Shown: positions 10,126-41,427 of the stretch, piece after piece
Layout: every line of letters begins with the position of its first letter
How positions within the stretch are numbered: position 1 is the first letter of the stretch
Made by a program: the position numbers and the translations under genes
The notes under the pieces: generated by a model
The model's database searches: none
What the model was told of the DNA's origin: nothing
Seen by the model: only the letters and a program-made list of their open reading frames with translations
Assembly (NCBI GenBank): GCA_963763775.1
Contig: CAVXPZ010000004.1
Span: 32,001 to 96,000, forward strand
Length of the DNA: 64,000 bases
Reading direction: 5' to 3'
Source of the DNA: an uncultured Chloroflexia bacterium
Lineage (GTDB): Bacteria > Chloroflexota > Limnocylindria > Limnocylindrales > CSP1-4

Positions 10126-10151
10126 GCTCGATCCGGCGCGACGGGGCGGGA

Positions 10152-10619
10152 TCAGTCCTCGGGCGCGAGCACCCAGCGGTCGACGTCGCGCTCGTACGCG
10201 AGCAGCTCCTCCGGCCGGAACCAGAGTCCCAGCTCCGTGGCCGACGCCTCCGGGCCATCGGAGGCGTGGACGATGTTCTGGGCCGTCTCGAGCGCGAAGT
10301 CCCCGCGGATCGTGCCCGGAGCGGCTTCGTGCGGGCGCGTCGCGCCGTTGATCGCGCGAACGACGGCGATCGCGTTGGGGCCCTCGAGTGCCGCGGCGAC
10401 GAGCGGCGCCGACGTGATGAAGTCCACGAGGCCGGCGAAGAACGGCTTCTCGCGATGGGCCGCGTAATGCGCCTCGGCGATGGCCCGATCGACGTGGACC
10501 AGCTTGAGGCCGATGAGCTTGAGGCCTCGCTCCTCATACCGCGCGAGGATGCGCCCGACGAGCTGGCGCTGGACGCCATCGGGCTTGACGAGGACGAGGG
10601 TCCGTTCAGTGGTCGACAT
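10152..10619 (-). CDS. ndk: Nucleoside-diphosphate kinase
   Basis: ERTLVLVKPDGVQR, PGTIRGDF, NIVHASD (phospho-His). Confidence 0.98.
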   Translation of the reverse strand: MSTTERTLVLVKPDGVQRQLVGRILARYEERGLKLIGLKLVHVDRAIAEAHYAAHREKPFFAGLVDFITSAPLVAAALEGPNAIAVVRAINGATRPHEAAPGTIRGDFALETAQNIVHASDGPEASATELGLWFRPEELLAYERDVDRWVLAPED

Positions 10620-10706
10620 GGCTTCCTTGGGTGGGGAGGCTGGTTGGATGCGACGCATCGTATCGGATGCTTGCGTGGGGGCGGGCGCCGGCGATGGCGC
10701 CGGAGG

Positions 10707-11810
10707 TCATGGTTCGCCGGCGAACGGGTCGGAGTCGTCGTCCGGCTCGTCGAGCGGCGGGGCGATGGGTTCGTCGAACCTCGCGTCGTCGACCGGCTGG
10801 ATCGCGACCGTGGTCCCGGCCGCCGTCATCGCCGAGGCGTAGGCGCGGCGGGCGTCCGTCTCGCGTCCGACGGCGCGATAGGCATCGCCCCGGACCATCT
10901 GCAACCCGGCGTCCGGGATGTCGCCGATGACGTCGAGGATGGCCGGCGCGATCGCGGGCGCGACCCGTACGGCGAGACCGAGGTGGAGCGCCGCACTGGC
11001 ATAGTCGCCGACGGCGAGGGCCGCCTCGCCGGCGTCCAGGATCGCCGCAGGGTCGAGGCCGGTGGGCGGACTCGGGTCCACCGGCGTGGCCGCGAGGCCG
11101 GTCGTGACGACCTCGGTCGGCGTCGGGTCCTCCGCCGGGATGTCCCAGAACCCCGGCTCCGCGTCCGGCGTGGCGAACGCCGCGCCGGCCGCCGCACCGA
11201 CGCCGTGTGCCGCCGACGACCGCCCATCGGCCGCTGGACCGGTCGTCTCGCTGGCCCGGGCGTCGTCGGCCGCATCCGCCGCGGCGACCGCGGCCGCGGT
11301 CGTGGTCGCGGCGGCGATCTCGGCCGCGGTCGTGGTCGAGACCCGGTCCGGCGGGAACAACGTCGTCGGCGACGGCACGGGCTCCGCGGGGTCCGCCGGC
11401 CAGACGCCCGAACGGGGCATGCCCGCGAAGATCGGGTCGATCGGTCCGTCGAGGGCTGCCTGGGCCTGCCCGGCGAGACGTCTCGCCTCGCTCGGCCGGC
11501 CGAGCGCGGAGGCCGCCTCGGCGGCCACCACGAGCGCGATGACCGAGGCGTCCCCGCCGGCCAGCGCCTCGCGCGCCGCGTCCCCGGCGCTGATGAGGTC
11601 GCCGGTCCGCCAGCGGACCTCGGCGAGGTCGATGCGGCCCGTGCGGTCGAGGCCGCCGCGCGCGCCGATGGTCTCGAGCTCGGCGCGGGCGAGCGCGAGA
11701 GAGCCGAGACGGAGGTGGAGCCCGGCGAGCACGAGGTCGGCGTCCCGCGTCTCCGTCGGCGGCGCGTCGGACCCGGGCGCCACGACGGGCGCGACCTCGG
11801 GCGTGGTCAT
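10707..11810 (-). CDS. Hypothetical TPR-like helical protein with an Ala/Thr/Pro-rich linker
   Basis: 367-aa ORF directly after the M16 peptidase; helical repeats such as LAEVRWRTGDLISAGDAAREAL and RGDAYRAVGRETDARRAY. Confidence 0.65.
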   Translation of the reverse strand: MTTPEVAPVVAPGSDAPPTETRDADLVLAGLHLRLGSLALARAELETIGARGGLDRTGRIDLAEVRWRTGDLISAGDAAREALAGGDASVIALVVAAEAASALGRPSEARRLAGQAQAALDGPIDPIFAGMPRSGVWPADPAEPVPSPTTLFPPDRVSTTTAAEIAAATTTAAAVAAADAADDARASETTGPAADGRSSAAHGVGAAAGAAFATPDAEPGFWDIPAEDPTPTEVVTTGLAATPVDPSPPTGLDPAAILDAGEAALAVGDYASAALHLGLAVRVAPAIAPAILDVIGDIPDAGLQMVRGDAYRAVGRETDARRAYASAMTAAGTTVAIQPVDDARFDEPIAPPLDEPDDDSDPFAGEP

Positions 11811-11814
11811 CGGG

Positions 11815-13083
11815 TCACGCCGGGATCCGGAGACGCGGCTCGAGGCCGCGAAGGTACCGGGCGGGCGCCACGGCCGCCAGCCGCAGGCCGTCGTCGTGGA
11901 ACAGCCGGGCGGCGAGCTTCTGGACCGCCTCGGCGTCGACCGCCTCCACGGCCTCGAGCGCCTCCTCGAGGGTCAACACGCGATCGTGGAGGGCCTCCTG
12001 GCCACCCACCCATGAGGCGACGTGGCGCGTGTCGTCCATCCGCAGCTCGAGGCCGCCGGCGAGGTAGCGCTTCGCCTTCTCGAGCTCCTCGGCGGGCACG
12101 AGCTCGTCGCGCAGGCGGGCCAGCTCGGCCAGGATCGCCTCGAGGGCCTCATGCAGGCCCGCCGGGTCGACACCCGCGGAGATCTCGAGCGCCCCCGCAT
12201 CCGCGTAGTCGACGAGTCCCGATGAGACGTCGTAGGCGAGGCCGCGCTCCTCGCGCACGGACAGGAAGAGTCGGCTGCTCATGCCATCGCCGAGCACCGC
12301 ATTGAGCACCGACAGCGTCCAGCTGTCCGGATGATCGCGGTGCAGCGCGGGGACGCCGATCGAGAGCTGCGCCTGGGACGTCTGGCGCTTGCCGACCGCG
12401 ACGCGGGGACCCGCAGGGAGCACCGGCGCCGGCGCGAACCCGGGCACGATCCCGTTGCCGGTCCCGAACGCCGTCGCGACCAGGTCGACCGCCTCCGTGT
12501 GGTCGATGTCGCCGGCCACCGCGACGACGATGTTCGCCGGGCGATAGGCCGTCCGCCAGAAGGCCCGGATCGTCTCCGCCGGGAGCGCCCGGATCCCGGC
12601 CTCGTCGCCGCAGATCTCGCGGCCGAGCGGACCGTCGCCGAACATCGCCCCCTGGAACAGGATCTGGCAGTACTCGGCGGGGTCGTCCAGGTAGGAGCGG
12701 ATCTCCTCGACGATGACGGCCCGTTCGCCGTCGATCTCGTGGTCCGCGAGGGTCGGGCGGACGATCAGCTCGCCGAGCACGTCGACGGCGCGCGAGGACT
12801 CGCGCCGGGGCACGCGGACCCAGTACACCGTGGATTCGCGGTCGGTGGCCGCGTTGAACGAGCCCCCGACGCCTTCGATCGCCTCGCTGATGGAGCGGGT
12901 CGACGGATAGGCCGCGGTCCCCTTGAAGGTGATGTGCTCCATGAAGTGCGCGACGCCCGCCTGCGCCTCGGTCTCGAGGCGCGATCCGGCCAGGACATAC
13001 GCTGCGATGGAGATCGATCGCGCCGCAGGCACCCGGGCGCTGATGACGCGCGGCCCCGAGGCCAGCACGGTCCGTTCGAACAT
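11815..13083 (-). CDS. M16 family (pitrilysin/insulinase) zinc peptidase
   Basis: AHFMEH (HxxEH), FNAATDRE, LGDGMSSRLF, VREERGLAY. Confidence 0.95.
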   Translation of the reverse strand: MFERTVLASGPRVISARVPAARSISIAAYVLAGSRLETEAQAGVAHFMEHITFKGTAAYPSTRSISEAIEGVGGSFNAATDRESTVYWVRVPRRESSRAVDVLGELIVRPTLADHEIDGERAVIVEEIRSYLDDPAEYCQILFQGAMFGDGPLGREICGDEAGIRALPAETIRAFWRTAYRPANIVVAVAGDIDHTEAVDLVATAFGTGNGIVPGFAPAPVLPAGPRVAVGKRQTSQAQLSIGVPALHRDHPDSWTLSVLNAVLGDGMSSRLFLSVREERGLAYDVSSGLVDYADAGALEISAGVDPAGLHEALEAILAELARLRDELVPAEELEKAKRYLAGGLELRMDDTRHVASWVGGQEALHDRVLTLEEALEAVEAVDAEAVQKLAARLFHDDGLRLAAVAPARYLRGLEPRLRIPA

Positions 13084-13239
13084 CGCCCCGATGGTACAGG
13101 AACCCGACCGCGACCCAGCCGCAACGCGCCGTGGCGCTTCGGGCGGGAGGGCCGACCGCTATCCTGACGCGGTGCCCGTCGACGCCCACCGCCCGAGCCG
13201 GTGCGGCGCGATCCCGGAGGTGAGGAGGAGACATCGGTG

Positions 13240-28118: not shown

Positions 28119-29399
28119 ATGGATCGATCCCTGCGGGCGGTGCTGCTCGGCACGTTCACCCTCCGGTTCAGCACCGGCCTCACCGGGTCCATGCTCGCGT
28201 TCTACCTCGCCCATCTCCAGGACCACGGCGGACCCGCCGTCGACGGCACGATCGTCGGCCTGTACGCGGCCCTGTTCTACCTCACCGAGCTGGTCCTCTC
28301 GCCGCTCTTCGGCATCCTCTCGGACCGCTTCGGTCACCACCGGGTCATGACGTTCGGGCCGGTGTTCGGCGGGGTCGCGGTCGTCCTGACCGGCCTCACG
28401 ACGAACCTCTTCCTGCTCGGCGGCACGCGCATCCTCGAAGGGGCGTCGAGCGCGGCGAGCGTCCCGTCCATCCTCGGCTTCATCGCCCTCGCGACGGCCG
28501 GCAACGAGGTCATGCGAGGCAAGATGGCGGCCCGGTTCGAGGCCGCGACGCTCGCCGGGCTCGGCGCCGGCGCCATCGTCGGCGTGAAGCTCTTCGAGAT
28601 CGTCGGCCCCGTCGCCTTCTTCCTGAACGCGGCGCTGTATGGCGTGTCGTGGGCGATCTACCGATTCGGGGTCAAGGACCCCGCCGGCGAGACCGAGTCG
28701 ATGGCCGGCGAACACGTCCACGTCGGCCGCTATCTGGAGCTGATCCGCACCTCGCATGTGTGGCTGCTGGCGCCGACGTGGATCGCGGTGAATGCCGCCA
28801 TCGGCGTGTGGCTGAGCCAGTCCGTCTTCCAGCTGGCGAAGGGCGACCCGCGCTTCCCCGACCAGGCGCTGATGGTCGGCTTCACGGCGAACCAGATCAC
28901 GATCGGGGCGATCGTCATCGCCGGCGTCTTCGGGGCCGGCCTGATCTACTGGGGCAACCGGTTCAAGTCGCTCCGCCGCACGACGATCATCGGGTATGGC
29001 GTCGCGGGCGGCGTCGCCCTCGTCGTGGCCGGGCTCGTCGTGAACCACGTCGCCACGGTCGCGCCGCTGATCGCCGTGGTGGCCGCCGTCGTCGCGGCGA
29101 TCGGCCTCTTCGTGCTCGCCGGCGCGACACCGGCGGCGCTCGGCCTGCTCGCCGACATGTCCGAGCGGTTCCCCTCGGATCGCGGCGCGATCATGGGCCT
29201 CTACTCGGTGTTCCTGGCGCTCGGCCAGATCACGGGCAGCCTGATCGGGGGTGTCGCGGCCGACTGGCGCGGCATCGACGGGATGTTCATCGCGACGCTC
29301 ATCCTGCTCGGCATCGCCGTCGTGCCGCTGGCCCAGCTCCGCACGCAGGAGCATCAGCTCGACGGGTCGGCGCCGAGGGCGGCCGAACCCTCCACGTGA
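28119..29399 (+). CDS. MFS transporter
   Basis: 12 hydrophobic segments, GILSDRFGHH (motif A), GTRILEG. Confidence 0.9.
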   Translation: MDRSLRAVLLGTFTLRFSTGLTGSMLAFYLAHLQDHGGPAVDGTIVGLYAALFYLTELVLSPLFGILSDRFGHHRVMTFGPVFGGVAVVLTGLTTNLFLLGGTRILEGASSAASVPSILGFIALATAGNEVMRGKMAARFEAATLAGLGAGAIVGVKLFEIVGPVAFFLNAALYGVSWAIYRFGVKDPAGETESMAGEHVHVGRYLELIRTSHVWLLAPTWIAVNAAIGVWLSQSVFQLAKGDPRFPDQALMVGFTANQITIGAIVIAGVFGAGLIYWGNRFKSLRRTTIIGYGVAGGVALVVAGLVVNHVATVAPLIAVVAAVVAAIGLFVLAGATPAALGLLADMSERFPSDRGAIMGLYSVFLALGQITGSLIGGVAADWRGIDGMFIATLILLGIAVVPLAQLRTQEHQLDGSAPRAAEPST

Positions 29400-31081
29400 C
29401 TACTGAGCGGCCCTGGGCGCCGGTCCCGCTGGTCCGCGGCGCGCATGGGGCCGTGGTGGCGCCACACCATCTCGCGACGGCCGCTGGGCTGGAGATCCTG
29501 CGGGCGGGGGGCACCGCCATCGATGCGGCGATCGCCACCAACGCCGCGCTGGCCGTGGTGATGCCCAACGGCTGCGGGGTCGGCGGCGACGCGTTCTGGC
29601 TGACCTGGGACGCGGCGACCGGGCGACAGGCCGCGCTCAACGGGTCCGGTCGCGCCGGAGGCCGCGCCGACGCCGCGTTCCTGCGGGCGAGCGGGCTCCG
29701 GACGCTCCCCCTTCGCGGACCGCTGTCGATCACGGTGCCTGGCGCGGTCCGGTCGTGGGGCGACGCGCACCGCGCCGGGGGACGGTTGAGTCGCGACCGG
29801 ATCCTCGCACCGGCCATCGAGCTCGCTCGTGCCGGGTTCCCTGCCTGGGACGGGTTCATCGACGCGGTGGAGCGCACCGCACCGCTCGTGGCGGACGCCC
29901 TCGGGCCGTCGGCGGGCTTCTTCGCGGTGTACCGGCCGCACGGACGGGCCTGGCGACCGGGCGAGCGGGTGCGACTGCCGGCACTCGCGGCCACGCTCGG
30001 GACGCTGGCCCGCGACGGCTTCGATGCCTTCTACGACGGCGATCTGGGCGATCGGCAGGCTCGAGCGCTCGAGGACGTCGGGGCGATGGTCACGCTCGGG
30101 GACCTGCGGGCACACACGTCGACCCCTGGCGAGCCCATCTCGATCGACTACCGCGGCGTCCGCGTCACGACGCACCCGCCCAACAGCTCGGGCGTGGTCG
30201 CGCTCGAGCTCCTCTCGATCCTCTCGGCGCTCGAGCCGCCTGCCGCGTCGGCGTTCGGCCCGGCGGGCGTGACCGACCCGCGCTGGATCCACCTGGGGAT
30301 CGAGGCCGCGAAGCTCGCGATGGCGGACCGCGACGCGTTCGTCACCGACCCGGCGTTCGAGGACGTGCCCGTGGAGCGACTGCTGTCCGCGTCGCACGGG
30401 GCCGAGCTCGCCGGCCGCATCGACCCGCGCCGCGCGGCCGTCCCGCCAGCCTCGGCGCATCCGATCGGCGGCGGCACGATCTACCTCGCCACCGTCGACG
30501 CGGACGGGAACGCGGTCAGCCTGATCGAGTCCAACTACCTGGGGTTCGGCTCGGGAGTCGTGGACCCGGACACGGGCATCCATTACCAGAACCGTGGCTC
30601 GTACTTCAGCCTGGATCCGGGCCATCCGAACCGGCTGGAGCCCGGCAAGCGGACGCTCCACACGCTGCTCCCCGGGATGCTGTTCCGGGACCGAGCGGAT
30701 GGCTCGCGCAGCGGCGCCCCGTGGGTCGTCGCAGGATCGATGGGCGGCGACGCCCAGCCGCAGATCCACGCCCAGCTCGTGTCGGCGCTCGTCGACGGCG
30801 GCGTCGACATCGCCACCGCCGTCGCGGCGCCGCGCTGGTTCGTGGAACCTGCGGAGCACTTCGCGCCGCCCGTCGAGGTCCGGCTCGAGCCACGGCTGGC
30901 GGCCGGGGTCGCCGAGGCGCTGACGGAGCTGGGCCACCCGGTGACGCTCGTGGAGGCATTCGACTCGAACCTCGGGCACGAGCACGCGATCGAGCTGGTG
31001 GCGGGCGGTCCGGCCGCGTCGGACGGCTCGCTCGCGGCCGCGACGGACCCTCGCAGCGCCGGCCTTCCAGCCGTCTGGTAA
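29396..31081 (+). CDS. Gamma-glutamyltransferase family (Ntn hydrolase)
   Basis: GGTAIDAAIA, GVGGDAF, TVPG, PPNSSG, GGTIYLATVD (autocleavage Thr), QNRG, PGKRTLHTL, MGGDAQPQ, DPRS. Confidence 0.93.
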   Translation: MTTERPWAPVPLVRGAHGAVVAPHHLATAAGLEILRAGGTAIDAAIATNAALAVVMPNGCGVGGDAFWLTWDAATGRQAALNGSGRAGGRADAAFLRASGLRTLPLRGPLSITVPGAVRSWGDAHRAGGRLSRDRILAPAIELARAGFPAWDGFIDAVERTAPLVADALGPSAGFFAVYRPHGRAWRPGERVRLPALAATLGTLARDGFDAFYDGDLGDRQARALEDVGAMVTLGDLRAHTSTPGEPISIDYRGVRVTTHPPNSSGVVALELLSILSALEPPAASAFGPAGVTDPRWIHLGIEAAKLAMADRDAFVTDPAFEDVPVERLLSASHGAELAGRIDPRRAAVPPASAHPIGGGTIYLATVDADGNAVSLIESNYLGFGSGVVDPDTGIHYQNRGSYFSLDPGHPNRLEPGKRTLHTLLPGMLFRDRADGSRSGAPWVVAGSMGGDAQPQIHAQLVSALVDGGVDIATAVAAPRWFVEPAEHFAPPVEVRLEPRLAAGVAEALTELGHPVTLVEAFDSNLGHEHAIELVAGGPAASDGSLAAATDPRSAGLPAVW

Positions 31082-31236: not shown

Positions 31237-31509
31237 GTGACCTCGAACGTCAGCCAGAGCTACCCGTACACCAGTGAGTCCGAGCCGGATCGCGCGGCCG
31301 GCCTCGCCGCACTCCTGGCCGAGCGTGCCGGCCTCGCCGACACGCTGGCGGCCGAGACGACGCCGCTCGGTGACGGCGACCGGTGGTGGGTCTGGAAGTG
31401 CCCGACCAAGGGCTGTCCCGGGTTGCTGCACGCGGCCGGGTACGCGCTCGAGAAGCATGCCGTCTTCGTGGTCTGCGACGGGACCTGCGCGAAGACCTTC
31501 CTGCGCTGA
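31237..31509 (+). CDS. Small Cys-rich (putative zinc-ribbon) protein, 90 aa
   Basis: GGAGG SD then GTG; WKCPTKGCPG ... VCDGTCAKTFLR gives two Cys pairs. Confidence 0.7.
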   Translation: MTSNVSQSYPYTSESEPDRAAGLAALLAERAGLADTLAAETTPLGDGDRWWVWKCPTKGCPGLLHAAGYALEKHAVFVVCDGTCAKTFLR

Positions 31510-31511
31510 GC

Positions 31512-32372
31512 ATGGCCGCCTCGGCGGGCACATCCGGCCCCGCCGGCCTCGACCCGATCGACCCCGCGGCGCTCGCCGCCAGCCGTCGGCGGCTGCTTGT
31601 CGAGTCGCTCGGGATCGCGGTCTCGGCGATCGGGTTCGGGTTCGTCTACGGCCTGTCAGCCCACGATGCCGGCTTCTCGCCGATCGACGCGATGGCGATG
31701 AGCGTGATCGTGTTCGCCGGTGCGGCGCAGTTCGCGGCCGTGGGCTACGTGGCCGGCGGCCTGCCGTGGATCGGCGTGGTGCTCCTCACGGGGCTGCTCA
31801 ACGCGCGGCATCTCCTGTACTCCGCGTCCCTCGCCCCGTGGCTCCAGGACGTCCCGCGCCCGCGCCGCGCCGTGATGGCCCACGTCCTGACCGATGAGGC
31901 GTTCGCGCTCTCGATGGCCCACTTCCGGCGTCTCGGTCGGACCGATGAGCGCGGGTACTGGATCGGGGCCATCCTGGCGACGTTCATCCCGTGGAACCTC
32001 GCGACGCTGGCGGGCGTCGTCGTCGGCGGCTCGATCCCGGACCCGAACCAGTTCGGCGTCGACGTGATCTTTCCGGCGGCCATGATCGGACTCGCCGTGG
32101 GGCTGGTGACGGGCCGGCGCGAGCTGGTCGCGGCGATCGTGGGCGGCGGGATCGCCGTGGTCGTGGCGCTCCTTGTCAGTCCGTCCGTGGGGATCGTCGC
32201 CGGGGGCGTCCTCGGGCCGGCGGTCGGCCTGATGGTCCCGGCGGCGGCGGCCCACGAGACGGCGCCGCTCGGGACGACGGAGAGTGCCGAACGGTACGCG
32301 ATGCCGGGCACGCACCTCGAGGAGGACGAGGCGGGGCCGGGCGCGTCGCCCGGGGCCGAGGCGCCCCGATGA
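31512..32372 (+). CDS. azlC: AzlC family branched-chain amino acid exporter, large subunit
   Basis: FAGAAQF, LNARHLLY, LTDEAFA motifs. Confidence 0.9.
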   Translation: MAASAGTSGPAGLDPIDPAALAASRRRLLVESLGIAVSAIGFGFVYGLSAHDAGFSPIDAMAMSVIVFAGAAQFAAVGYVAGGLPWIGVVLLTGLLNARHLLYSASLAPWLQDVPRPRRAVMAHVLTDEAFALSMAHFRRLGRTDERGYWIGAILATFIPWNLATLAGVVVGGSIPDPNQFGVDVIFPAAMIGLAVGLVTGRRELVAAIVGGGIAVVVALLVSPSVGIVAGGVLGPAVGLMVPAAAAHETAPLGTTESAERYAMPGTHLEEDEAGPGASPGAEAPR

Positions 32373-33009: not shown

Positions 33010-33399
33010 TCAGCCCCGGCGGGCCTCGGCTTCGATCTCGATGAGCAGGGTCGGGTCGATCAGGGCGCTGACCTCGACGAGCGTGGCCGCCGGGCGGATG
33101 TCCCCGAAGACCTCGCCATGGACCGCGAGGACCTCCGCGGAGCGGCCGATGTCGGTCACGAACATCCGCGTGCGCACGACGTCGGTCAGCGCGAACCCGG
33201 CCTCGGCGAGCGCGGTGTCGATGATCGCGAGCGTCGCCCGGGCCTGGCTGGCCACGTCTCCGGGATGCTGCGTGCGACCGTCCGGGCCCGCATCCGTCGT
33301 GCCCGAGACCCAGCACGCGTCGCCGACGACGATCGCGCGGCTGTAGCCGGCGGCGGCCTCCCACGGGCCGCCCGAGGTGATCCGGCGCCGTTCGGTCAC
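33010..33399 (-). CDS. RidA/YjgF/UK114 family protein
   Basis: WEAAAGYSRA, VSGTT, DVVRTRMFV, IRPAATLVEVSALIDP, IEIEAEA. Confidence 0.92.
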   Translation of the reverse strand: MTERRRITSGGPWEAAAGYSRAIVVGDACWVSGTTDAGPDGRTQHPGDVASQARATLAIIDTALAEAGFALTDVVRTRMFVTDIGRSAEVLAVHGEVFGDIRPAATLVEVSALIDPTLLIEIEAEARRG

Positions 33400-33403
33400 G
33401 CCG

Positions 33404-34648
33404 TCACGCGGTCGCGTCCCGCCAGGCGAGCACCTCGGGGTCGCGCGCGATCGAGAGCAGGAGGCCCGCCAGCAGCGCCGTCCGCGGCACGATGGAGGTG
33501 ACCTCCAGGTACTCCGAGGGCGAGTGGTCGTTGCCGCCGATCGGCCCGAGCCCATCGAGGCTTGGCACGCCCATGCCCGACGTCGTGTTCGCGTCGGAGG
33601 CGCCACCCGTCGCCGCATCGCCGATCGTGAACCCGAGCGAGCCGGCGACCGCGCTGGCGTGCTGGACGAGTCGCCCACTCCGTGCGAGCTTCTCCATCGG
33701 CCACCAGCGGGCCATCGGCTCGAACTCGACCGTGATGTCCGGCACCACCGTCGCCTCGGCGATCCGACGGACCTCCGCCTCGGCCTCCTCGAGCTCGGCC
33801 CGGGCGACGCCGCGGACATCGACCTCGAGCGAGCACCGCTCCGGGACCACGTTCGGCCGCGTCCCCCCGGCGATGACCCCGACGTTCACGGTGACCCCCG
33901 GCCAGCGTCCGTTCAGATCGTGGAGGTCCCGGACGATCCGAGCGGCCTCGAGGATCGCGTTGCGGCCCTTCTCCGGTTCGACGCCGGCGTGCGCCGCGCG
34001 ACCGTGGACGGTCATCCGCAGGTCGAGGATCCCCTTCCGCGACGACACGATGTCGCCGTTGGCGCGGGCGCACTCGAGGACGAGGCATGCGTCGACGGAG
34101 GGCGCGATCTCCCGGATGTGCGGTGTCGAGGTCGGCGAGCCGATCTCCTCGTCGGGGTTCGCGATGAAGACCAGCTGCTCGAACGGCACGCCGCCGAGCT
34201 CGCCGATGAGCGCCTTCAGCGCGTACAGCCCGGCGAGCAGCCCCGACTTCATGTCGGTGACGCCCGGCCCGCGGGCGACGCCCTCGGCGATGTGGAAGGG
34301 CCGTTCCTCGGCCGTGCCCGGGTCGAAGACCGTGTCCATGTGCCCGATCAGGAGCACGCGCGGAGCGCCCGCGCGGCCCGCGAACGTGGCGATCACGGTG
34401 TCCCCGAGGCGACCCTCGGGGTCGGGCCGGACCTCGATCGTGGCGCCGAGCTCCGCGAGGAAGCCGGCCGTCCAGCGGCCGACCTCGTTCACGCCGTCGG
34501 GCGTGTAGCTCCCGCAGTCGATGTTGACCAGCCGCTCGAGATCGCGCAGGTAGTTCGGGAGGTCCGCTTCGATGGCGGCCCGGAGCGCATCGAGCTCGGG
34601 GGTCGGGGGCGCCGGCGTCTCGCCGGCCGGGGCGGTGAGGGCGTCCAT
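33404..34648 (-). CDS. M20 family metallopeptidase (carboxypeptidase G2-like)
   Basis: GHMDTVF, GPGVTDMKSG, DEEIGS, AHAG, GGASDAN, GPIGGNDHSPSEY; ATG 7 nt after TAGACT. Confidence 0.93.
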   Translation of the reverse strand: MDALTAPAGETPAPPTPELDALRAAIEADLPNYLRDLERLVNIDCGSYTPDGVNEVGRWTAGFLAELGATIEVRPDPEGRLGDTVIATFAGRAGAPRVLLIGHMDTVFDPGTAEERPFHIAEGVARGPGVTDMKSGLLAGLYALKALIGELGGVPFEQLVFIANPDEEIGSPTSTPHIREIAPSVDACLVLECARANGDIVSSRKGILDLRMTVHGRAAHAGVEPEKGRNAILEAARIVRDLHDLNGRWPGVTVNVGVIAGGTRPNVVPERCSLEVDVRGVARAELEEAEAEVRRIAEATVVPDITVEFEPMARWWPMEKLARSGRLVQHASAVAGSLGFTIGDAATGGASDANTTSGMGVPSLDGLGPIGGNDHSPSEYLEVTSIVPRTALLAGLLLSIARDPEVLAWRDATA

Positions 34649-34693: not shown

Positions 34694-36454
34694 GTGCGAC
34701 TGGTCGAGACCCGCCTGTTCGAGGGCCCCAACGTGTACCGGCTCGAGCCGGTGGTCAAGGTCGAGCTGGCCGTCGGGAAGCGGCGGACCTTCTACGGCCA
34801 GCGCGACCCGGGCCGGCATGCGCTGGTCCGCCTCGGCGCCCTGGTCCCGGCCCGCGAGTGGCCCGATGGGATCGCCGGCGTCGTGGCCTGGGTCCGCCGA
34901 CTGCGGGCGGACCACGGCGAAGGGACCGGCGGGGTCGGCGTCCACCGTTCGTCCGACCCGGGCCACTGGCTCGTGACGTTCCCGTGGCGCGGCGAGGAGC
35001 GCGCTCGGACGATCACCGACGCGGCGCTGGCCCTCGCCGAGCGCGACGTCTCGCCGTCGCGGACCGCGCGCCTGACCGGCGCGCAGGAACGCCTGCTCGA
35101 CCGGTGGACCGAGCGGATCGCGGCCGCGGGGACGGCACCGCCCACGTGGGTGCGCGACGCCGATCGACACATCCCGGTCATCTCGATCTCGGGCACGAAC
35201 GGCAAGTCCACCGTCACCCGGCTCATCAGCCACATCCTCATCGGCGCCGGACGACATGTCGGGACCACCACGTCGGACGGTGTCCTGGTCGACGAGCGGA
35301 TGGTCGACCCGGGCGACTGGACGGGTCCCGGCGGCGCGCACCAGATCCTCGGCCGCCGCGACCTCGACGTCGCCGTGCTCGAGACGGCCCGGGGTGGGAT
35401 CGTCCTGCGCGGCGTCGGCTATGAGTCGAACGAGGCCAGCGTCCTGACGAACGTCTCGTCGGACCACCTCGACCTCCAGGGGATCCACACCCTCCCCGAG
35501 CTCGCGGAGGTCAAGTCCACGATCTGCCGCATCACCAAGCGGGGCGGCTGGGTCGTGCTCAACGCGGACGACCCGCTCGTGGCGGCGGTGGCGCGACGGA
35601 CGCACGCCCACGTGGCGTTCTTCTCGATCGCCGACGAGTCCGCGGTGATCCGGCGGCATCGGGCGGCTGGCGGCCGCGCCTACGTCGTGCGGCGTGGTGT
35701 CATCGTCGAGGCAGATGGCGACCGCGAGACCGAGATCGTCGACGTCGCGCGGGTGCCGATCACCATCGGCGGCCTCGCGCGGCATAACGTCGCCAACGCC
35801 CTCGCCGCGGCCGGCGGGGCGCGCGGCCTGGGGGCGACCATCGAGCAGGTCCACGACGGGCTCGTCGACTTCGGACCGACATCGGAGCGGTCGCCGGGCC
35901 GGCTGAACCTGTACCGCCTCGGGGCCCGGGTCGTGATCGTCGACTTCGCCCACAACGAGGCCGGGATCGCCGCGGTCCTCGATGTCGCCGAGGGGATCGC
36001 CGGCGGCGCGGCCGGACGTGCCGCGCCCATCACGGCGATCATCGGCACGGCCGGCGACCGGCCGGACGACACGTTGCGCGGGATCGGGCGGATCGCCGCC
36101 CAGCGCGCGCAACGCGTCGCGATCAAGCAGACGCTGCGATACCTGCGAGGGCGGACGGCCGACTCGGTCGTCGGCGAGCTGCTGGCGGGCGTGGAGGAGG
36201 GCGGCGGCGACCCTTCGACCGTGCCGGTCTACGAGACCGAGCCCGAAGCCCTGCGAGCCGAGCTGAACGGCGCGGCCGGGCATGGGTCGGACGGCGGCCG
36301 TGTCGATGGCCCGCGGGTCGTGGTGCTGATGTGCCATGAGGACCGTGACGGCGTGTTCCGCGTGCTCGAGGAGCTCGGGGCGCGGCCCGTGGACGTCGCC
36401 TCCGAGCTGACCGAGCTGGTGCCGCGGCTGCAGACGCGGCCGCGACGCGCCTGA
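34694..36454 (+). CDS. Cyanophycin-synthetase-like Mur ligase lacking the ATP-grasp domain (586 aa)
   Basis: N-terminus VRLVETRLFEGPNVYRLEPVVKVEL aligns by eye with the neighbouring CphA LRILETRVLRGPNYWAREPVIRMLV. After about 160 aa come SGTNGKST, TTSDG, ETARGG, TNVSSDHL, LNADD, HNVANALAA, PGRLN, DFAHN, GDR. Confidence 0.88.
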   Translation: MRLVETRLFEGPNVYRLEPVVKVELAVGKRRTFYGQRDPGRHALVRLGALVPAREWPDGIAGVVAWVRRLRADHGEGTGGVGVHRSSDPGHWLVTFPWRGEERARTITDAALALAERDVSPSRTARLTGAQERLLDRWTERIAAAGTAPPTWVRDADRHIPVISISGTNGKSTVTRLISHILIGAGRHVGTTTSDGVLVDERMVDPGDWTGPGGAHQILGRRDLDVAVLETARGGIVLRGVGYESNEASVLTNVSSDHLDLQGIHTLPELAEVKSTICRITKRGGWVVLNADDPLVAAVARRTHAHVAFFSIADESAVIRRHRAAGGRAYVVRRGVIVEADGDRETEIVDVARVPITIGGLARHNVANALAAAGGARGLGATIEQVHDGLVDFGPTSERSPGRLNLYRLGARVVIVDFAHNEAGIAAVLDVAEGIAGGAAGRAAPITAIIGTAGDRPDDTLRGIGRIAAQRAQRVAIKQTLRYLRGRTADSVVGELLAGVEEGGGDPSTVPVYETEPEALRAELNGAAGHGSDGGRVDGPRVVVLMCHEDRDGVFRVLEELGARPVDVASELTELVPRLQTRPRRA

Positions 36455-36859: not shown

Positions 36860-37579
36860 TCAGGCGGGGCGCGGCCACCAGGCGACGACGTCGACCCGGG
36901 ACGCGAAGCGCAGATGCGGCGGTTCGTCGGGGAGCGTGAGGCCGTGCGCTTCGGCCATCGTCTCGATCTCGAACCGGGCCGCCGCTGGTTGGAGCGGCCA
37001 CGGGGCGTGCCGGATCTCGGTGCGCAGGACCTGACCGTCGCCGTCCATCGCGAACAGGCGCCAACGCTCGGTCAGCCACGCCTCGAGTGACCCGGGCGCG
37101 GCCCGCTCGACCGGTCCTGTCGGCCGGTATCTCGTTTCGAGCCGCGCCGGCGGCCCGCGGTGGTCGATCCGCACGGACCGGTAGTCGATGACCTCACGCA
37201 CGCGTCCCGTGGACATGCGCGCCTCGTAGTACGGCAGGTGGAACGCCGTTCGGGCACCCTCGACCGCCGGGCGACTGCCCGCATCGAGGCTCAGGAACCA
37301 GACGCCCGACCGGCCTCGATATCGGACGTACGTCCGCACGTTGAGCTCAGGAAACGCGCCGGCGACCGGCGGCGCCGGCAGACCCCGGATCCCGACGTCC
37401 TCCATCCGGAACGGGACGATGCCCAGGTAGGCACGGCCCTCGAACAGGTCGAGCTCGAGCGGTTCGGGCACCACCGCCCGGATGGCCGCCGGATCGATGG
37501 GCCAGTGCGCGAAGAGCAGGTCGCGCCACCGCATCCGCATCACCCACGGCCGTCGGCCGAGGTCGGGCAGCCGTGTCAT
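36860..37579 (-). CDS. YqjF/DUF2071 family protein
   Basis: MRWRDLLFAHW, GIVPFRM, FPELNVRTYV, VWFLSLDA, WLTERW, HAPWPLQ. Confidence 0.88.
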   Translation of the reverse strand: MTRLPDLGRRPWVMRMRWRDLLFAHWPIDPAAIRAVVPEPLELDLFEGRAYLGIVPFRMEDVGIRGLPAPPVAGAFPELNVRTYVRYRGRSGVWFLSLDAGSRPAVEGARTAFHLPYYEARMSTGRVREVIDYRSVRIDHRGPPARLETRYRPTGPVERAAPGSLEAWLTERWRLFAMDGDGQVLRTEIRHAPWPLQPAAARFEIETMAEAHGLTLPDEPPHLRFASRVDVVAWWPRPA

Positions 37580-37594
37580 GGGACGACGGCGGAC

Positions 37595-40450
37595 CTAGCC
37601 TTCGGGGGCCGTGAGCTCGCCCGGGTCCGCGAACGCCGTGCCCCCGCGCGACGTGCCGGACGCCGACATGGCCTCGCGGTAGACGCCGATCGCGTCGTCG
37701 ACGCAGCAGACCACGAGGTCGCCCGGGATCGCCCGTCGGAGCGCCGCCCGGACGGCGGTCATCTCCTCGAGGACCTTGTCGGCTCGGGCGGCTCGGGCAT
37801 GTCCGGCGGCCCGGGCCTTGCGAACCCCCTCGATGACGTTCGACGCGGTCTCGCCGGGTGCCCGTCCGCGAAGGTTCTTGTCCTCGCGCACGATGATCTC
37901 GTCGAACGCGGTCGCCGCGACGGCCCCGTACTCGCGCTGGTCGTCGTCGCGCCGGTCGCCGGGGATGCCGAGGACGCCGATCGCGCGGCCGGTCCGGAGC
38001 GCCGCCCCGCTCGGGCCGATCCGCCCGGCCTTCGTGACGGGCTCCTCCATCATCCGGTTGACGAAGTCGGCGAGCTGCCGCATGCCGTCGACGTTGTGGC
38101 AGTAGTCGATGACGACGCGGACACCGCCGACGTCGAGCAGGTTCAGCCGCCCGGGCGCCTGGAAGAACGACGTCGTGAACGTCCGCAGCCCTTGGCGGAT
38201 GTCATGCAGGTGCGCGCCCGCCGACCAGGCCGCCGCGGCCGCGGCCAACGCGTTGGCGACGTTCATCCGGGCACGGCCACCGAACGTGGCCGGGATGAGG
38301 TGCGTGTACAGCACCGGCATCGTGCGCGGGCCGAGCTTGAGCACGATGAGCTCGCCCTCCGAGGACGCCTCGAGGCAGAAAGCGGCACCGCCGCGACCCG
38401 TGTGGCCATCCACGCGGTCGTAGCCGTCCTCGCCCTTCGTCATCGACATGCTGAACAGCACGACTCGTCCCGAGCAGTGCCGGCCCATGCGGTAGACATG
38501 CGAGTCGTCGGCGTTGAGGACGGCGGTGCCGGATCGCGGCACGGCCTCCACGACCACGCCCTTGACGTTCGCGAGCTGGCCGATCGAGTCGATGCCGCCG
38601 AGCCCGAGGTGGTCGCCGGTCACGTTGGTCACCACGGCGACGTCGTTGCGGTCGTAGCCGAGGCCCTCGCGCAGGATCCCGCCGCGGGCCACCTCGAAGA
38701 CCGCCGTGTCCACGGTCGGGTTCTGGAGCACGGTCTGCGCCGACTTCGGGCCGGACATGTCGCCTTTTCTGATCAGCCGGCCGTCGACGACGATGCCGTC
38801 CGTCGAGGTCATGCCGACCCGCCGGCCCATCAGCTTGAGGATGTGGGCGATCATCCGGACCGTCGTCGTCTTGCCGTTGGTGCCGGTCACCGCGACGATC
38901 GGGATCCTCGCCGACGACCCTGGCGGGAACAGGGAATCGATGACGGGGCGGGCCACGTATTGCGGCTCCCCCTCGGTCGGGTGGGTGTGCATCCGGAACC
39001 CGGGCGCCGCGTTGACCTCGACGATCGCCCCGCCGGTCTCCCGGACGGGGGTCGCGATGTCCGGACAGATGAAGTCGATGCCGGCGACGTCGAGGCCGAC
39101 GATCTGCGCCGCCGTCTCGGCGATCTCGACGTTGTCCGGGTGCGCCTCGATGGTCCGGTCGATGGACGTGCCGCCCGTCGACATGTTGCCGGTCAGCGCG
39201 AGCTTCACGCGCGTGCCCGCCGGCGGGACCGCGTCCAGGCTCAGTCCCTGGGCCGAGACGAGGGCCTCGGCCGCCTCGTCCATCTTGATCCGCGTCAGGA
39301 CCTTCTCGTGCCCGATCCCGCGACGCGGGTCCTGGTTGGCGAGGTCGACGAGCTCGCGGACGGTATGCGACCCGTCGCCGGTCACCGACGCCGGCACCCG
39401 CTCGGCGATGGCCGCCACCTTGCCACCGATCACGAGGCAGCGGTAGTCGTTGCCGGCGACGTACGTCTCGACGACCAGGTCGCCGGACCGGCTCTCGGAT
39501 CGCGCACCGTGGAAGGCGGCACGGACCGCCTCCTCGGACTGCAGGTCGAGATGGACGCCGCGGCCGTGGTTCCCGTCGAGCGGCTTCACCACGCACGGGT
39601 ACCCGAGGCGCTTGGCGGCCGCGACGGTCTCGTCCTCGGTCTCGACCACCTCGGACCGCGGCACGGGCAGGCCGGCCGAGTCGAGCAGCCGATTCGTCAG
39701 GCTCTTGTCCGACGCGATGTCGACGCCGATCGCGGAGGTCTGCGACGTCATCGTCGCGCGGATCCGCTGCTGGTGGACCCCGTGGCCGAACTGGACGAGC
39801 GAGTGCCGGTCGAGCCGGATGAACGGGATGTCGCGGCTCACCGCCTCGTCGATGAGGGCCTGCGTCGACGGCCCGAAGGCCTGTCGCTCGGCCTGGCGGA
39901 TCAGCCGTTCGAGCTCGACGGCGAAATCGAAGAAGACCTCGGGATCGTCGGGCGCGACCAGGTGGTTGACGAGGCGGACGGCCATCCGACCGGCCTCGAG
40001 GCCGACCTGCTCCTCGCGGTACTCGTAGATGCAGTTGTACTGGCCGGGCTTCCCGGCCGAGCGCGTCTTGCCGTGGCGGACATCCGTGCCCGCGAGGTTC
40101 TGGAATTCGAGCGCGACGTGCTCGGCGATGTGCCCCGCCCACGTCCCGTCGCGCAGGCGCGTGATGAAACCGCCGCGCCGGCCGAGCGAGCAGGCGTGGT
40201 CCTCGAGCGTCGGCATCAGCGCGACGAGCGCGTCGGTGAAGTTCGGGAGCTTGTTCGACGGGTAGTCCTCGAGGACGCCGAGGTCGACGAGCATCCGGAT
40301 GACGGGCTCGCGCGCCCAGTAGTTGGGACCGCGCAGGACGCGAGTCTCCAGGATCCGCAGGGTCGGGGCCGGACCCGATGTGGGCGTCCCGGCCTTCGCC
40401 ACGCGGGAACCGCCGCGCTTGGAGCGGGACGCGGGTGCGGTCTGGGCCAC
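37595..40450 (-). CDS. cphA: Cyanophycin synthetase (CphA1 type, N + ATP-grasp + Mur ligase)
   Basis: HACS...GHIAEH N domain, GPST, VKPLDGNHGRGV, DYR, NMSTGG, EVNAAPGFRMH (ATP-grasp), TGTNGKTT, EVARGG, DHLG, PGRLN, DYCHN, PGDRRD; 951 aa. Confidence 0.97.
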   Translation of the reverse strand: MAQTAPASRSKRGGSRVAKAGTPTSGPAPTLRILETRVLRGPNYWAREPVIRMLVDLGVLEDYPSNKLPNFTDALVALMPTLEDHACSLGRRGGFITRLRDGTWAGHIAEHVALEFQNLAGTDVRHGKTRSAGKPGQYNCIYEYREEQVGLEAGRMAVRLVNHLVAPDDPEVFFDFAVELERLIRQAERQAFGPSTQALIDEAVSRDIPFIRLDRHSLVQFGHGVHQQRIRATMTSQTSAIGVDIASDKSLTNRLLDSAGLPVPRSEVVETEDETVAAAKRLGYPCVVKPLDGNHGRGVHLDLQSEEAVRAAFHGARSESRSGDLVVETYVAGNDYRCLVIGGKVAAIAERVPASVTGDGSHTVRELVDLANQDPRRGIGHEKVLTRIKMDEAAEALVSAQGLSLDAVPPAGTRVKLALTGNMSTGGTSIDRTIEAHPDNVEIAETAAQIVGLDVAGIDFICPDIATPVRETGGAIVEVNAAPGFRMHTHPTEGEPQYVARPVIDSLFPPGSSARIPIVAVTGTNGKTTTVRMIAHILKLMGRRVGMTSTDGIVVDGRLIRKGDMSGPKSAQTVLQNPTVDTAVFEVARGGILREGLGYDRNDVAVVTNVTGDHLGLGGIDSIGQLANVKGVVVEAVPRSGTAVLNADDSHVYRMGRHCSGRVVLFSMSMTKGEDGYDRVDGHTGRGGAAFCLEASSEGELIVLKLGPRTMPVLYTHLIPATFGGRARMNVANALAAAAAAWSAGAHLHDIRQGLRTFTTSFFQAPGRLNLLDVGGVRVVIDYCHNVDGMRQLADFVNRMMEEPVTKAGRIGPSGAALRTGRAIGVLGIPGDRRDDDQREYGAVAATAFDEIIVREDKNLRGRAPGETASNVIEGVRKARAAGHARAARADKVLEEMTAVRAALRRAIPGDLVVCCVDDAIGVYREAMSASGTSRGGTAFADPGELTAPEG

Positions 40451-40493: not shown

Positions 40494-41330
40494 CTAGCTG
40501 GAGGCGGCCTCGCCGCCGGGAAGGGCGTGGAGCGTGGGCGTCGAGATCCGGGCGCGGTGCCGGAGGTCGAATCGGTACCCGGCCGGCAGGGAGTGCAGCA
40601 CGACGCCGCTGATCATGAGCGGCCGGTGGCCGCGGACCTCCCACGCGTCGGTCTCGGATTGGGCGCCGTCGACGACGGTGATCGAGCCGCGGCCGATGAC
40701 TTCGAGGATGCCGTCCGGGCCGACCACGCCGGCCGTGTCCTCGTCCACGCCGAGGCCGAGCAGCGACGGGTTCTGGGCGATCAGGCTCAGCAGGCGGCCC
40801 AGCCGGTTCCGCTGCTGGAAGTGCTGGTCGACGATGACGCCGGGCAGCACCCCGAGCCCGGCGGAGATCTGCGCCATCCGGTGCTTTGGCGTCGCGCCCG
40901 ACGCGCCGAACGCGATCATGTGGCTCGACATCGCGGAGGCGCCGGCGGACGTCCCCGCCACCACGGCGCCGTGGCGGAACCGTTCCAGGATCGCATCGGC
41001 CAGCCGCGTGCCGCCGATCGTGGACGACAGTCGGAGCTGGTTCCCGCCGGTGAGGAAGATGCCGGTCGCATCGCGCACGGCCAGGGCGGCGTCCGGGTCG
41101 TTCGCCTGCGGGCGGGTCACGGCGTGGAGGAGCTTGACCCGCGTCACGCCGAGTTCCGCGAACACAGCCTTGTACCGCTCGCCTGCCTCGAGCCCCAGCG
41201 ACGAGGCGGTCGAGATGACGGCGATCGTGGCATCGACGCCGCCCGCGAGCGCGACGAACCGGCTGAGGATGACCCGATCCCGGACCTTGTCCTCTGCGCC
41301 GCCGATGATGATGACGGTCCCTTCGGCCAC
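40494..41330 (-). CDS. cphB: Cyanophycinase (peptidase S51)
   Basis: IGGAEDK, TGGNQ, GTSAGA (Ser nucleophile), DQHF (His), GVDEDT; directly upstream of cphA. Start may be GTG 41330 or 41339. Confidence 0.96.
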   Translation of the reverse strand: MAEGTVIIIGGAEDKVRDRVILSRFVALAGGVDATIAVISTASSLGLEAGERYKAVFAELGVTRVKLLHAVTRPQANDPDAALAVRDATGIFLTGGNQLRLSSTIGGTRLADAILERFRHGAVVAGTSAGASAMSSHMIAFGASGATPKHRMAQISAGLGVLPGVIVDQHFQQRNRLGRLLSLIAQNPSLLGLGVDEDTAGVVGPDGILEVIGRGSITVVDGAQSETDAWEVRGHRPLMISGVVLHSLPAGYRFDLRHRARISTPTLHALPGGEAASS

Positions 41331-41427
41331 GAGCTCCACGTGCTTCGGCGTTCGTTGGCGGTGAGGATACCGCCTCGAAGCCGACCGCCGCCGAACGGCT
41401 GACCGTCCGTGCGAGAATCCGCGTGCC

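Follow-up and report, generated by a model that had tools for sequence, protein, structure and literature searches.

We describe a gene for a cyanophycin synthetase paralogue that has no ATP-grasp (G) domain, located within a 64,000-nucleotide stretch of DNA, referred to here as the window, from an uncultured bacterium of the Limnocylindrales (Chloroflexota; assembly GCA_963763775.1, contig CAVXPZ010000004.1, positions 32,001 to 96,000). This G-less gene is convergent with, and 1.1 kb away from, cphA1, which encodes a full cyanophycin synthetase 1 (CphA1) and has the cyanophycinase gene cphB on its far side. The product of the G-less gene, P0001, is confirmed to be a CphA-like N domain fused straight to a CphA-type Mur-ligase (M) domain. 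The genes, and the parts of P0001 that are discussed below, are located in the window as follows.

34694..36454, + strand: G-less CphA paralogue gene, an open reading frame (ORF) of 586 amino acids with a GTG start, encoding P0001
34694..35158, + strand: N-terminal domain (residues 1-155), like the CphA N domain, without Cx19HxxEH; placed by BLASTP and VIA-align
35186..35815, + strand: Mur ligase middle domain (Mcore; residues 165-374), with P-loop G167-T173, E230 and D257-H258; placed by PF08245 and invariant columns
35897..36280, + strand: Mur ligase C-terminal domain (Mlid; residues 402-529), with R403, H420-N421 and D455-R456; placed by PF02875 and invariant columns
36125..36154, + strand: loop K478-R487 (KQTLRYLRGR), carrier of the family signature; placed by alignment with the DEDPR loop of MurE from the same genome and by column counts
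37595..40450, - strand: cphA1, 951 amino acids; TIGR02068 matches end to end with 1137.2 bits against a cut-off of 850
40494..41381, - strand: cphB, cyanophycinase; TIGR02069 with 262.7 bits against a cut-off of 126.6, and Pfam Peptidase_S51

Pfam matches on P0001 were limited to Mur_ligase_M (PF08245, residues 165-374, 76.8 bits, cut-off 24) and Mur_ligase_C (PF02875, residues 402-529, 29.9 bits, cut-off 28.4), both above their gathering scores, which places the protein in the Mur ligase superfamily. At E<=0.01 we observed no match to any ATP-grasp family or to the N-domain family PF18921; the neighboring CphA1 has PF18921, eight ATP-grasp-type families and the Mur domains. The NCBIfam cyanophycin synthetase model, TIGR02068, gave 376.1 bits on P0001, far short of the 850 bits expected of a full-length CphA1, and covered model positions 474-838 of 862 only. 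The second-best NCBIfam family was MurE (NF001126, 106.5 bits against a cut-off of 373); no MurE, MurC, MurD, MurF or FolC cut-off was reached, and all of these but MurE scored below 106.5 bits. By BLASTP, P0001 residues 160-500 are 36% identical to residues 516-876 of the neighboring CphA1 (E 1e-56), and residues 1-56 are 34% identical to its residues 31-83 (E 1e-4), so that the P-loop of P0001 comes about 356 residues earlier. The N-terminus of P0001 reads VETRLFEGPNVY and its counterpart in CphA1 reads LETRVLRGPNYW. The translation contains the Mur motifs GTNGKST (167-173), ETARGG, DH (257-258), NADD, DFAHN and GDR, and its residues 1-155 contain neither a Cys nor HxxEH; the neighboring CphA1 carries KPLDGNHGRG, EVNAAPG and the Cx19HxxEH motif. 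A preliminary description of this gene, made from sequence inspection, had pointed to the mirrored N-terminus, the early P-loop with the ATP-grasp region missing, the retention of all Mur motifs and the absence of Cx19HxxEH from the N domain, and had recommended a domain scan with hidden Markov models and a structure model against CphA1; each of these features is borne out by the results above, the scan finding Mur_ligase_M and Mur_ligase_C only, and the model, as seen below, superposes on CphA1 over both N and M. The preliminary description had also called this architecture the inverse of that of CphA2, and the comparison is apt. CphA2 has an active G domain and an inactive, truncated M domain, and polymerizes beta-Asp-Arg (PMC10273328). 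The two proteins are both reduced relatives of CphA1 with an N domain and one catalytic domain, but the reductions are opposite, and P0001, in which G is absent and M complete, is a mirror image of CphA2.

P0001 belongs to a family that has no curated name and no functional study in the searchable literature, and which we call G-less type A: proteins of about 530-600 amino acids with N-terminal E-x-R-x-L-x-G-P-N, a CphA-type M domain, a Y-L-R-G-R loop and a partner cphA1 in the genome. P0001 is assigned to it by its place in a 24-member alignment (A1), the presence of Y483 and the cphA1 gene 1.1 kb away. Among the matches listed in a word-index search, 120 proteins of 579-715 amino acids were 78-90% identical to P0001 over 99-100% of the query; most are 586-587 amino acids long, and they back the GTG start of the gene in this high-G+C genome. 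An exhaustive search of 50%-identity representatives returned 1202 proteins at E<=1e-30, among them many of 530-600 amino acids that align from residue 1-4 at 34-45% identity, and full-length CphA1s (870-890 amino acids) that align across the M domain only. ATP-grasp families were unmatched in all 24 members of A1 at the Pfam threshold given above. Alignment A1 has 45 invariant columns, which include the P-loop, E230, D257-H258, N290/D293, H420-N421, D455-R456, R485 and an N-terminal G11/N13/P19 motif, and R7, L9, G11, P12, N13 and P19 are each at least 90% conserved. The ratio of nonsynonymous to synonymous substitution rates (dN/dS) was 0.23, 0.28 and 0.22 against three orthologues (69-77% amino acid identity; dS 0.69-1.10). 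A recent strain-specific deletion, an outcome that the preliminary description had named as one that would speak against it, is ruled out, as is a pseudogene, by the wide, old and conserved family and by these ratios of 0.22-0.28, which indicate purifying selection. Separately, we noted that a minority of G-less genes have an internal stop, split frames or shortening (G349, G261 and G301; G724, G696, G631 and G779; L045). The gene therefore decays on occasion, though part of these cases may be assembly errors.

At 38 alignment columns, one residue is shared by at least 90% of the sequences in each of three groups: type A (40 rows), a second G-less family described below as type B (21 rows), and CphA1 M domains (86 rows). 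These columns take in N169, K171, E230, R403 and H420, which correspond at a constant offset of 328 to N497, K499, E558, R731 and H748 of TeCphA1, and D257 and H258, which map by alignment to D585 and H586 of SuCphA1; T522 is, at the same offset, the counterpart of S194 in P0001. The 5 TeCphA1 residues contact ATP or Mg, with R731 and H748 binding the ATP phosphates, and K499A impairs activity (PMC9427784); in SuCphA1, M is inactivated by the published D585A/H586A double mutation (PMC9262961). All ATP, Mg and catalytic residues that could be mapped from these papers are conserved in both G-less families, and P0001 has the D-H pair, the P-loop lysine (K171) and the Mg-binding glutamate (E230) of a Mur-type M domain.

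An AlphaFold2 model of P0001 (pLDDT 88.7, pTM 0.90) gave CphA1 structures as its top Foldseek matches (TMq 0.75), with alignments across the whole CphA1 chain, and the family profile scored 436 bits on 7lg5 against 145 for the top non-CphA chain. When the model was compared with SuCphA1 and TeCphA1 in VIA-align, 504-511 residues were aligned with Z from 42.6 to 37.1, model residues 1-564 lying on chain residues 1-872; the top Z, 42.6, was obtained on 7txv_A with 504 residues. Other Mur ligases gave Z of about 23-26, the best being 25.9 with 346 residues aligned. As model residues 155-564 number 410, at least 94 of the first 154 residues must superpose in the same rigid-body arrangement. Thus, in the predicted structure, the CphA N domain and its packing on Mcore appear to be kept despite the absence of a PF18921 match, the resemblance being evident in structure and not in the sequence profile. 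A search of the ESM Atlas with residues 1-160 gave no usable match.

These results bear on the suggestion that the role of the G-less protein is structural or regulatory, as a subunit linking CphA1 oligomers, its ligase activity being irrelevant. In CphA1 tetramers Mcore touches three Gcore modules (PMC9427784), so that a free Mcore could dock, and the strict co-occurrence and co-diversification of the 2 genes, described below, would also fit. Yet the conservation of every mapped catalytic and ATP-binding residue in both G-less families is unexpected for a purely structural protein, and mutation of W672 disrupts the SuCphA1 tetramer (PMC9262961), whereas this residue lines up with a variable loop of the G-less protein, as judged by a manual position count on the alignment. 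We consider a subunit of this kind very improbable.

An ORF scan of other loci yielded the second set of G-less proteins, type B, whose hosts are Proteobacteria, Myxococcota, Planctomycetota and Acidobacteriota. The type B genes have the following locations, given as positions within each locus.

L043 11324-13054; L046 9446-11161; L061 11323-13185; L074 11312-13288; L075 within 8518-13107: directly downstream of cphA1, same strand
L078 10502-13246: 1 kb downstream of cphA1
L082 7628-11158: convergent with cphA1

Types A and B are alike in architecture and length (~540-600 amino acids for type B), in their catalytic columns, in a Tyr insert and in their tie to cphA1, and they differ in that type B forms a separate clade (93-97 by the Shimodaira-Hasegawa-like approximate likelihood ratio test, SH-aLRT) and has another gene order relative to cphA1. 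Part of type B corresponds to Pfam DUF4938 (PF16292) together with Mur_ligase_M/C. DUF4938 matches 1 of 24 members of A1 and 3 of 20 in alignment A2, with scores of 102 bits for P0227 and 30.9 bits for P0265 (cut-off 32); P0001 itself had no DUF4938 match at E<=0.01. The sole paper that we found to mention DUF4938 states no function in the part available (PMC13592688).

We kept 80 loci from genome contigs, and 14 of them carry a type A gene, their hosts being Limnocylindrales and Chloroflexia metagenome-assembled genomes (MAGs), Thermomicrobiales, Kribbella, Terrabacter, Nocardioides and other Actinomycetota. In 11 of the 14 (L004-L008, L011, L012, L016, L017, L019 and L045) the opposite strand carries cphA1 at a distance of 0.1-8 kb downstream, and cphB then follows in 10 of these 11; for loci L009 and L010 the downstream sequence available is 1.1 kb or less. 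Conserved-neighbor clustering was noisy from spurious overlapping ORFs at high G+C, and only Pfam-confirmed clusters were used. We also examined samples of 401 genomes from each of 2 phyla. In the Chloroflexota sample, 57 genomes matched at E<=1e-20, six of them with weak MurE-like matches only, and the genes were distributed as follows.

G-less gene carriers: 43 genomes, with 12, 16, 8 and 7 in four families
Carriers that also have cphA1: 42 of 43, the exception (G301) having gene fragments only
Genomes with both genes, adjacent and convergent: 32-33 of 42
G-less gene (542-amino-acid frames) unlinked to cphA1: 7 genomes, all of one family
cphA1 alone: 7 genomes
Ambiguous: 1 genome

Accordingly, 42 of the 49 Chloroflexota genomes that bear cphA1 have a G-less partner. 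Within the family to which the window belongs, both genes are present in 11 genomes and missing from 11-12, and one further genome has only a fragment. The family with unlinked genes is represented by G048, G060, G099, G126, G144, G189 and G223, genomes of ~6 Mb in which the 2 genes are on different contigs or, in G223, 3.8 Mb apart. Among the 401 Actinomycetota genomes, 41 matched with a CphA-type M domain at E<=1e-30, and all 41 have both a G-less gene and CphA1, on the same contig and 0.2-12 kb apart in 40 (39 of 39 if the two unpublished genomes, G491 and G746, are set aside). Over both samples, 83 of 84 carrier genomes also have cphA1. Co-occurrence of the G-less gene with cphA1 is near-obligate, and the linkage to cphA1 and cphB, strong in the loci and in both phylum samples, is opposite to the finding of homologues unlinked to cph genes that would have told against the preliminary description. 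As a separate observation, G403, the Thermomicrobiales genome that contains L008, has four CphA1-type M-domain matches on three contigs and one G-less gene, an unusual multiplicity.

Two trees were built, and their SH-aLRT values come from quick searches on sequence sets that contained no CphA2. Tree 1 (LG+G4) was built on 156 M domains, the outgroup being three Mur ligases from this genome. All 86 CphA1 rows and five odd G-less rows fell in one clade (98 SH-aLRT), outside which type A (SH-aLRT 93 for 40 rows) and type B (97 for 21 rows) branched from an unresolved base. In tree 2 (90 rows; LG+C20+F+G4) the CphA1 proteins (49 rows) lay on one side of a branch with a value of 98; type B had 93, and type A had 88 for a 23-row core and only 27 for its full 24 rows. 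Thirteen CphA1s of the partnered lineage formed a clade in tree 2 (98), which was split into type A-adjacent and type B-adjacent parts. The G-less and CphA1 trees are congruent at a coarse level; this congruence and the partnered CphA1 clade indicate that the pairs have long been inherited together. Mur ligases fell outside the CphA/G-less group in both trees (96-98 SH-aLRT). By these trees, the NCBIfam scores and the family profile, the M domain groups with CphA and not with FolC or MurC-F; grouping with the latter was what the preliminary description had named as grounds for abandoning it.

Forcing the G-less proteins together with the partnered CphA1 clade, a group named after the tree had been viewed, cost 10.7 log-likelihood units in the approximately unbiased (AU) test, with p = 0.25; an origin of the G-less proteins at a later date, from within the partnered CphA1 lineage, is thus not rejected. 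With this AU value, and with long outgroup branches, the proposal that the G-less paralogue is demonstrably older than all CphA1 is unproven. As a bolder possibility, on which the AU test gives no decision, the tree allows the N+M protein to be the ancestral form and CphA1 to be derived from it by insertion of the ATP-grasp domain. The five odd rows (P0214, P0244, P0247, P0255 and P0271) have no detectable G domain, are nested in ordinary CphA1 clades and in some cases have a recognizable CphA N domain. G may have been lost from them recently and independently, or they may be metagenomic gene calls cut short.

In comparison with known enzymes, P0001 has in common with CphA1 (TIGR02068; 7lg5, 7lgj, 7lgq, 7txv and 7wae) an M domain, 36% identical in the case of the neighbor, the mapped residues, the N-domain fold and its packing on M, and the N-terminal E-x-R-x-L-x-G-P-N motif. 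It is unlike CphA1 in having no G domain, no Cx19HxxEH, a score of 376 against the 850-bit cut-off, a different loop at 478-487, no counterpart of the SuCphA1 tetramer Trp, and an M domain outside the CphA1 clade (98 SH-aLRT). The Cx19HxxEH hydrolytic site occurs in 83% of CphA1 (PMC9262961) and is not strictly defining. With MurE, MurC, MurD, MurF, FolC and the pseudomurein ligases it shares the Mur_ligase_M/C fold (Z ~23-26) and acyl-phosphate chemistry, whereas those enzymes have another N-terminal domain and lie outside the CphA/G-less group, and the NCBIfam scores of P0001 are far under their cut-offs.

The clearest difference between the G-less families and CphA1, and one that may bear on substrate choice, is in the loop 478-487, which precedes the invariant R-G-R and is matched in the alignment by the DEDPR loop of MurE from this genome. 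In E. coli MurE, the DNPR loop is a determinant of the amino acid added. Of 86 CphA1 rows, 72 have D and 7 have E at the column of T480, where 15 of 40 type A rows have K, another 14 have T, and type B has L, M or Q. Y483 occurs in 38 of the 40 type A rows and in 15 of the 21 from type B, whereas 83 of the 86 CphA1 rows show a gap at that position. From the consensus lines, CphA1 keeps GDRRD-x-D where the G-less proteins have GDR-x-D. At the thresholds used, just three columns show conservation that differs between CphA1 and type A. Judged from these residues, the incoming substrate of the G-less enzyme may differ from arginine. The preliminary description had proposed a ligase adding arginine, lysine or another amino acid; the ligase-type M domain is indeed intact, and the altered loop casts some doubt on the first two of these.

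Possibly, then, the enzyme adds something besides arginine, another amino acid or an amine, and would give a modified or end-capped cyanophycin with changed solubility, chain length or access for CphB. The clean difference between families in the MurE-aligned loop, with D or E at the T480 column in 79 of 86 CphA1 against K/T in type A and L/M/Q in type B, the extra aromatic Y483 and the shortened GDR-x-D all point in this direction. However, the role of the loop in CphA1 is carried over from MurE, and the rest of the pocket is very similar, the three differing columns being the only ones. We rate attachment of a residue other than arginine as unlikely, and as equally doubtful its corollary, that Actinomycetota and many Chloroflexota make an undescribed polymer that is distinct or end-capped.

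On balance, we lean toward the interpretation that P0001 is an active ATP-dependent amide ligase of the CphA M type, which acts in trans on cyanophycin or on short fragments of it as an accessory to cphA1-cphB. We infer its acceptor, the residue added and its physiological role from the features set out above. The groove in which CphA1 holds the C-terminal end of the polymer would be made up here of the retained N domain and Mcore. A carboxylate would be phosphorylated in this groove, the likeliest being the beta-carboxylate of a backbone Asp without a side chain, and an amino acid would then be joined to it. Lacking an ATP-grasp domain, the G-less enzyme would be unable to lengthen the backbone. 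In one large CphA1 lineage, it would add an accessory third member to the cphA1-cphB system.

Several observations weigh against this interpretation. The neighboring CphA1 and, from the consensus lines, all partnered CphA1s keep their own M domain intact, and a second side-chain ligase therefore has no obvious job. Past its first 19 residues the N domain is poorly conserved in the 24 members of A1, which makes its binding of polymer uncertain. Nor is partnership universal: CphA1 occurs alone in seven Chloroflexota genomes and in five more genomes chosen from the loci, namely an Acidobacteria (L050), a Gammaproteobacteria (L079), an Actinoplanes (L071), an Actinomycetes MAG (L070) and a Chloroflexia MAG (L063). 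Two of these five are Actinomycetota, from outside the 401-genome sample, and two, L050 and L079, are inside the partnered CphA1 clade yet have no partner. No cphA1 occurs in the 10 kb of sequence downstream at locus L015, and the unlinked genes in seven genomes of one Chloroflexota family are type B-like. In Actinomycetota the G-less gene directly follows fabG-like and enoyl-ACP-reductase-like (adh_short_C2) genes on the same strand, which hints that it is transcribed there with unrelated housekeeping genes. Finally, the searchable literature holds no biochemical or genetic data on any family member, and no paper on a G-less CphA paralogue was found in the full-text literature searched, subscription papers and supplements, which may mention such genes, being outside that search. 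A paper on cyanophycin gene bioinformatics makes no mention of truncated or Mur-only forms in the part available (PMC10206079), and two cphA homologues have been noted in R. eutropha (PMC11362209).

The Actinomycetota arrangement is exemplified by L005, and the pair of genes recurs at L009, L011, L012, L016, L017, L019 and L045, with a MoaA gene farther upstream. We take the arrangement to resemble mabA-inhA.

L005 8481-9185, + strand: fabG-like gene
L005 9207-9983, + strand: adh_short_C2 (enoyl-ACP-reductase-like) gene, ~20 bp upstream of the G-less gene

This arrangement, the 0.2-12 kb of unrelated genes that may part the G-less gene from cphA1, and the Chloroflexota family with unlinked genes could all be accommodated if the G-less protein were a Mur-type ligase of an unrelated pathway that shares only a neighborhood with the cph genes. 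We find this most improbable: 83 of 84 carrier genomes have cphA1, presence and absence of the 2 genes coincide in the window's own family, and the M and N domains are specifically CphA-like.

The partnered CphA1s also provided information about priming. CphA1 needs a primer, the minimal one being (beta-Asp-Arg)-Asp (PMC9262961), and a lone M module could attach Arg to Asp, whether free or within a peptide; the G-less protein might, accordingly, synthesize beta-Asp-Arg or (beta-Asp-Arg)-Asp-like starters de novo for CphA1. But the Cys and HxxEH of the primer-generating site are kept in 19 of 19 partnered CphA1s examined (Cx19 in 9 of 9 type A partners; Cx19 in 1 of 10 and Cx21 in 9 of 10 type B partners), so that there is no evident primer defect to complement, and the minimal primer would still need a backbone bond, which is beyond the G-less protein. 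A primer synthase thus seems improbable to us. Complementation of a CphA1 with a broken M domain, or of a primer-dependent one, is likewise disfavored, the M motifs being intact and the primer site present in 19 of 19.

The remaining genes near the G-less gene in the window are listed below. From left to right the order is MFS transporter, gamma-glutamyltransferase, AzlC, RidA, M20 (-), G-less gene (+), and then the convergent (-) DUF2071 gene, cphA1 and cphB.

28119..29399, + strand: major facilitator superfamily (MFS) transporter gene, beyond the M20 peptidase gene
29402..31081, + strand: gamma-glutamyltransferase (GGT) gene, beyond the M20 peptidase gene
31383..32372, + strand: AzlC gene, beyond the M20 peptidase gene
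33010..33420, - strand: RidA gene, beyond the M20 peptidase gene
33404..34648, - strand: M20 peptidase gene, divergent from the G-less gene across a 45-bp spacer; Pfam M20 and M20_dimer, and an NCBIfam glutamate carboxypeptidase subfamily at 294 bits, below its cut-off of 349
36860..37579, - strand: DUF2071 gene, between cphA1 and the G-less gene, 15 bases from the cphA1 end; Pfam PF09844, 249.3 bits

The DUF2071 gene is probably part of the cphB-cphA1 transcript, because only 15 bases separate it from the end of cphA1; no counterpart was found by tblastn in the 18 related loci tabulated. The MFS, AzlC, RidA and M20 genes occur in the same order at locus L004. As neither isoaspartyl dipeptidase IadA (TIGR01975) nor an IaaA-type Asparaginase_2 (PF01112) had a match in this genome, which is 87% complete, the M20 enzyme or GGT could be the missing beta-Asp-Arg dipeptidase.

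Cyanophycin, a nitrogen-storage polymer of industrial interest, is currently drawn as the business of CphA1 or CphA2, a cyanophycinase and a dipeptidase. The phylum-wide co-occurrence counts, the partnered CphA1 clade, the AU test and the loop signature are new here. Since a G-less protein is a near-constant partner of CphA1 in two phyla, the pattern suggests that the pathway as drawn is incomplete for a large part of the bacterial world. If side chains are indeed added or changed in trans, the G-less enzymes would be a natural tool with which to tailor polymer composition, and they could help to explain why some heterologous CphA1s behave differently from those in their native hosts.

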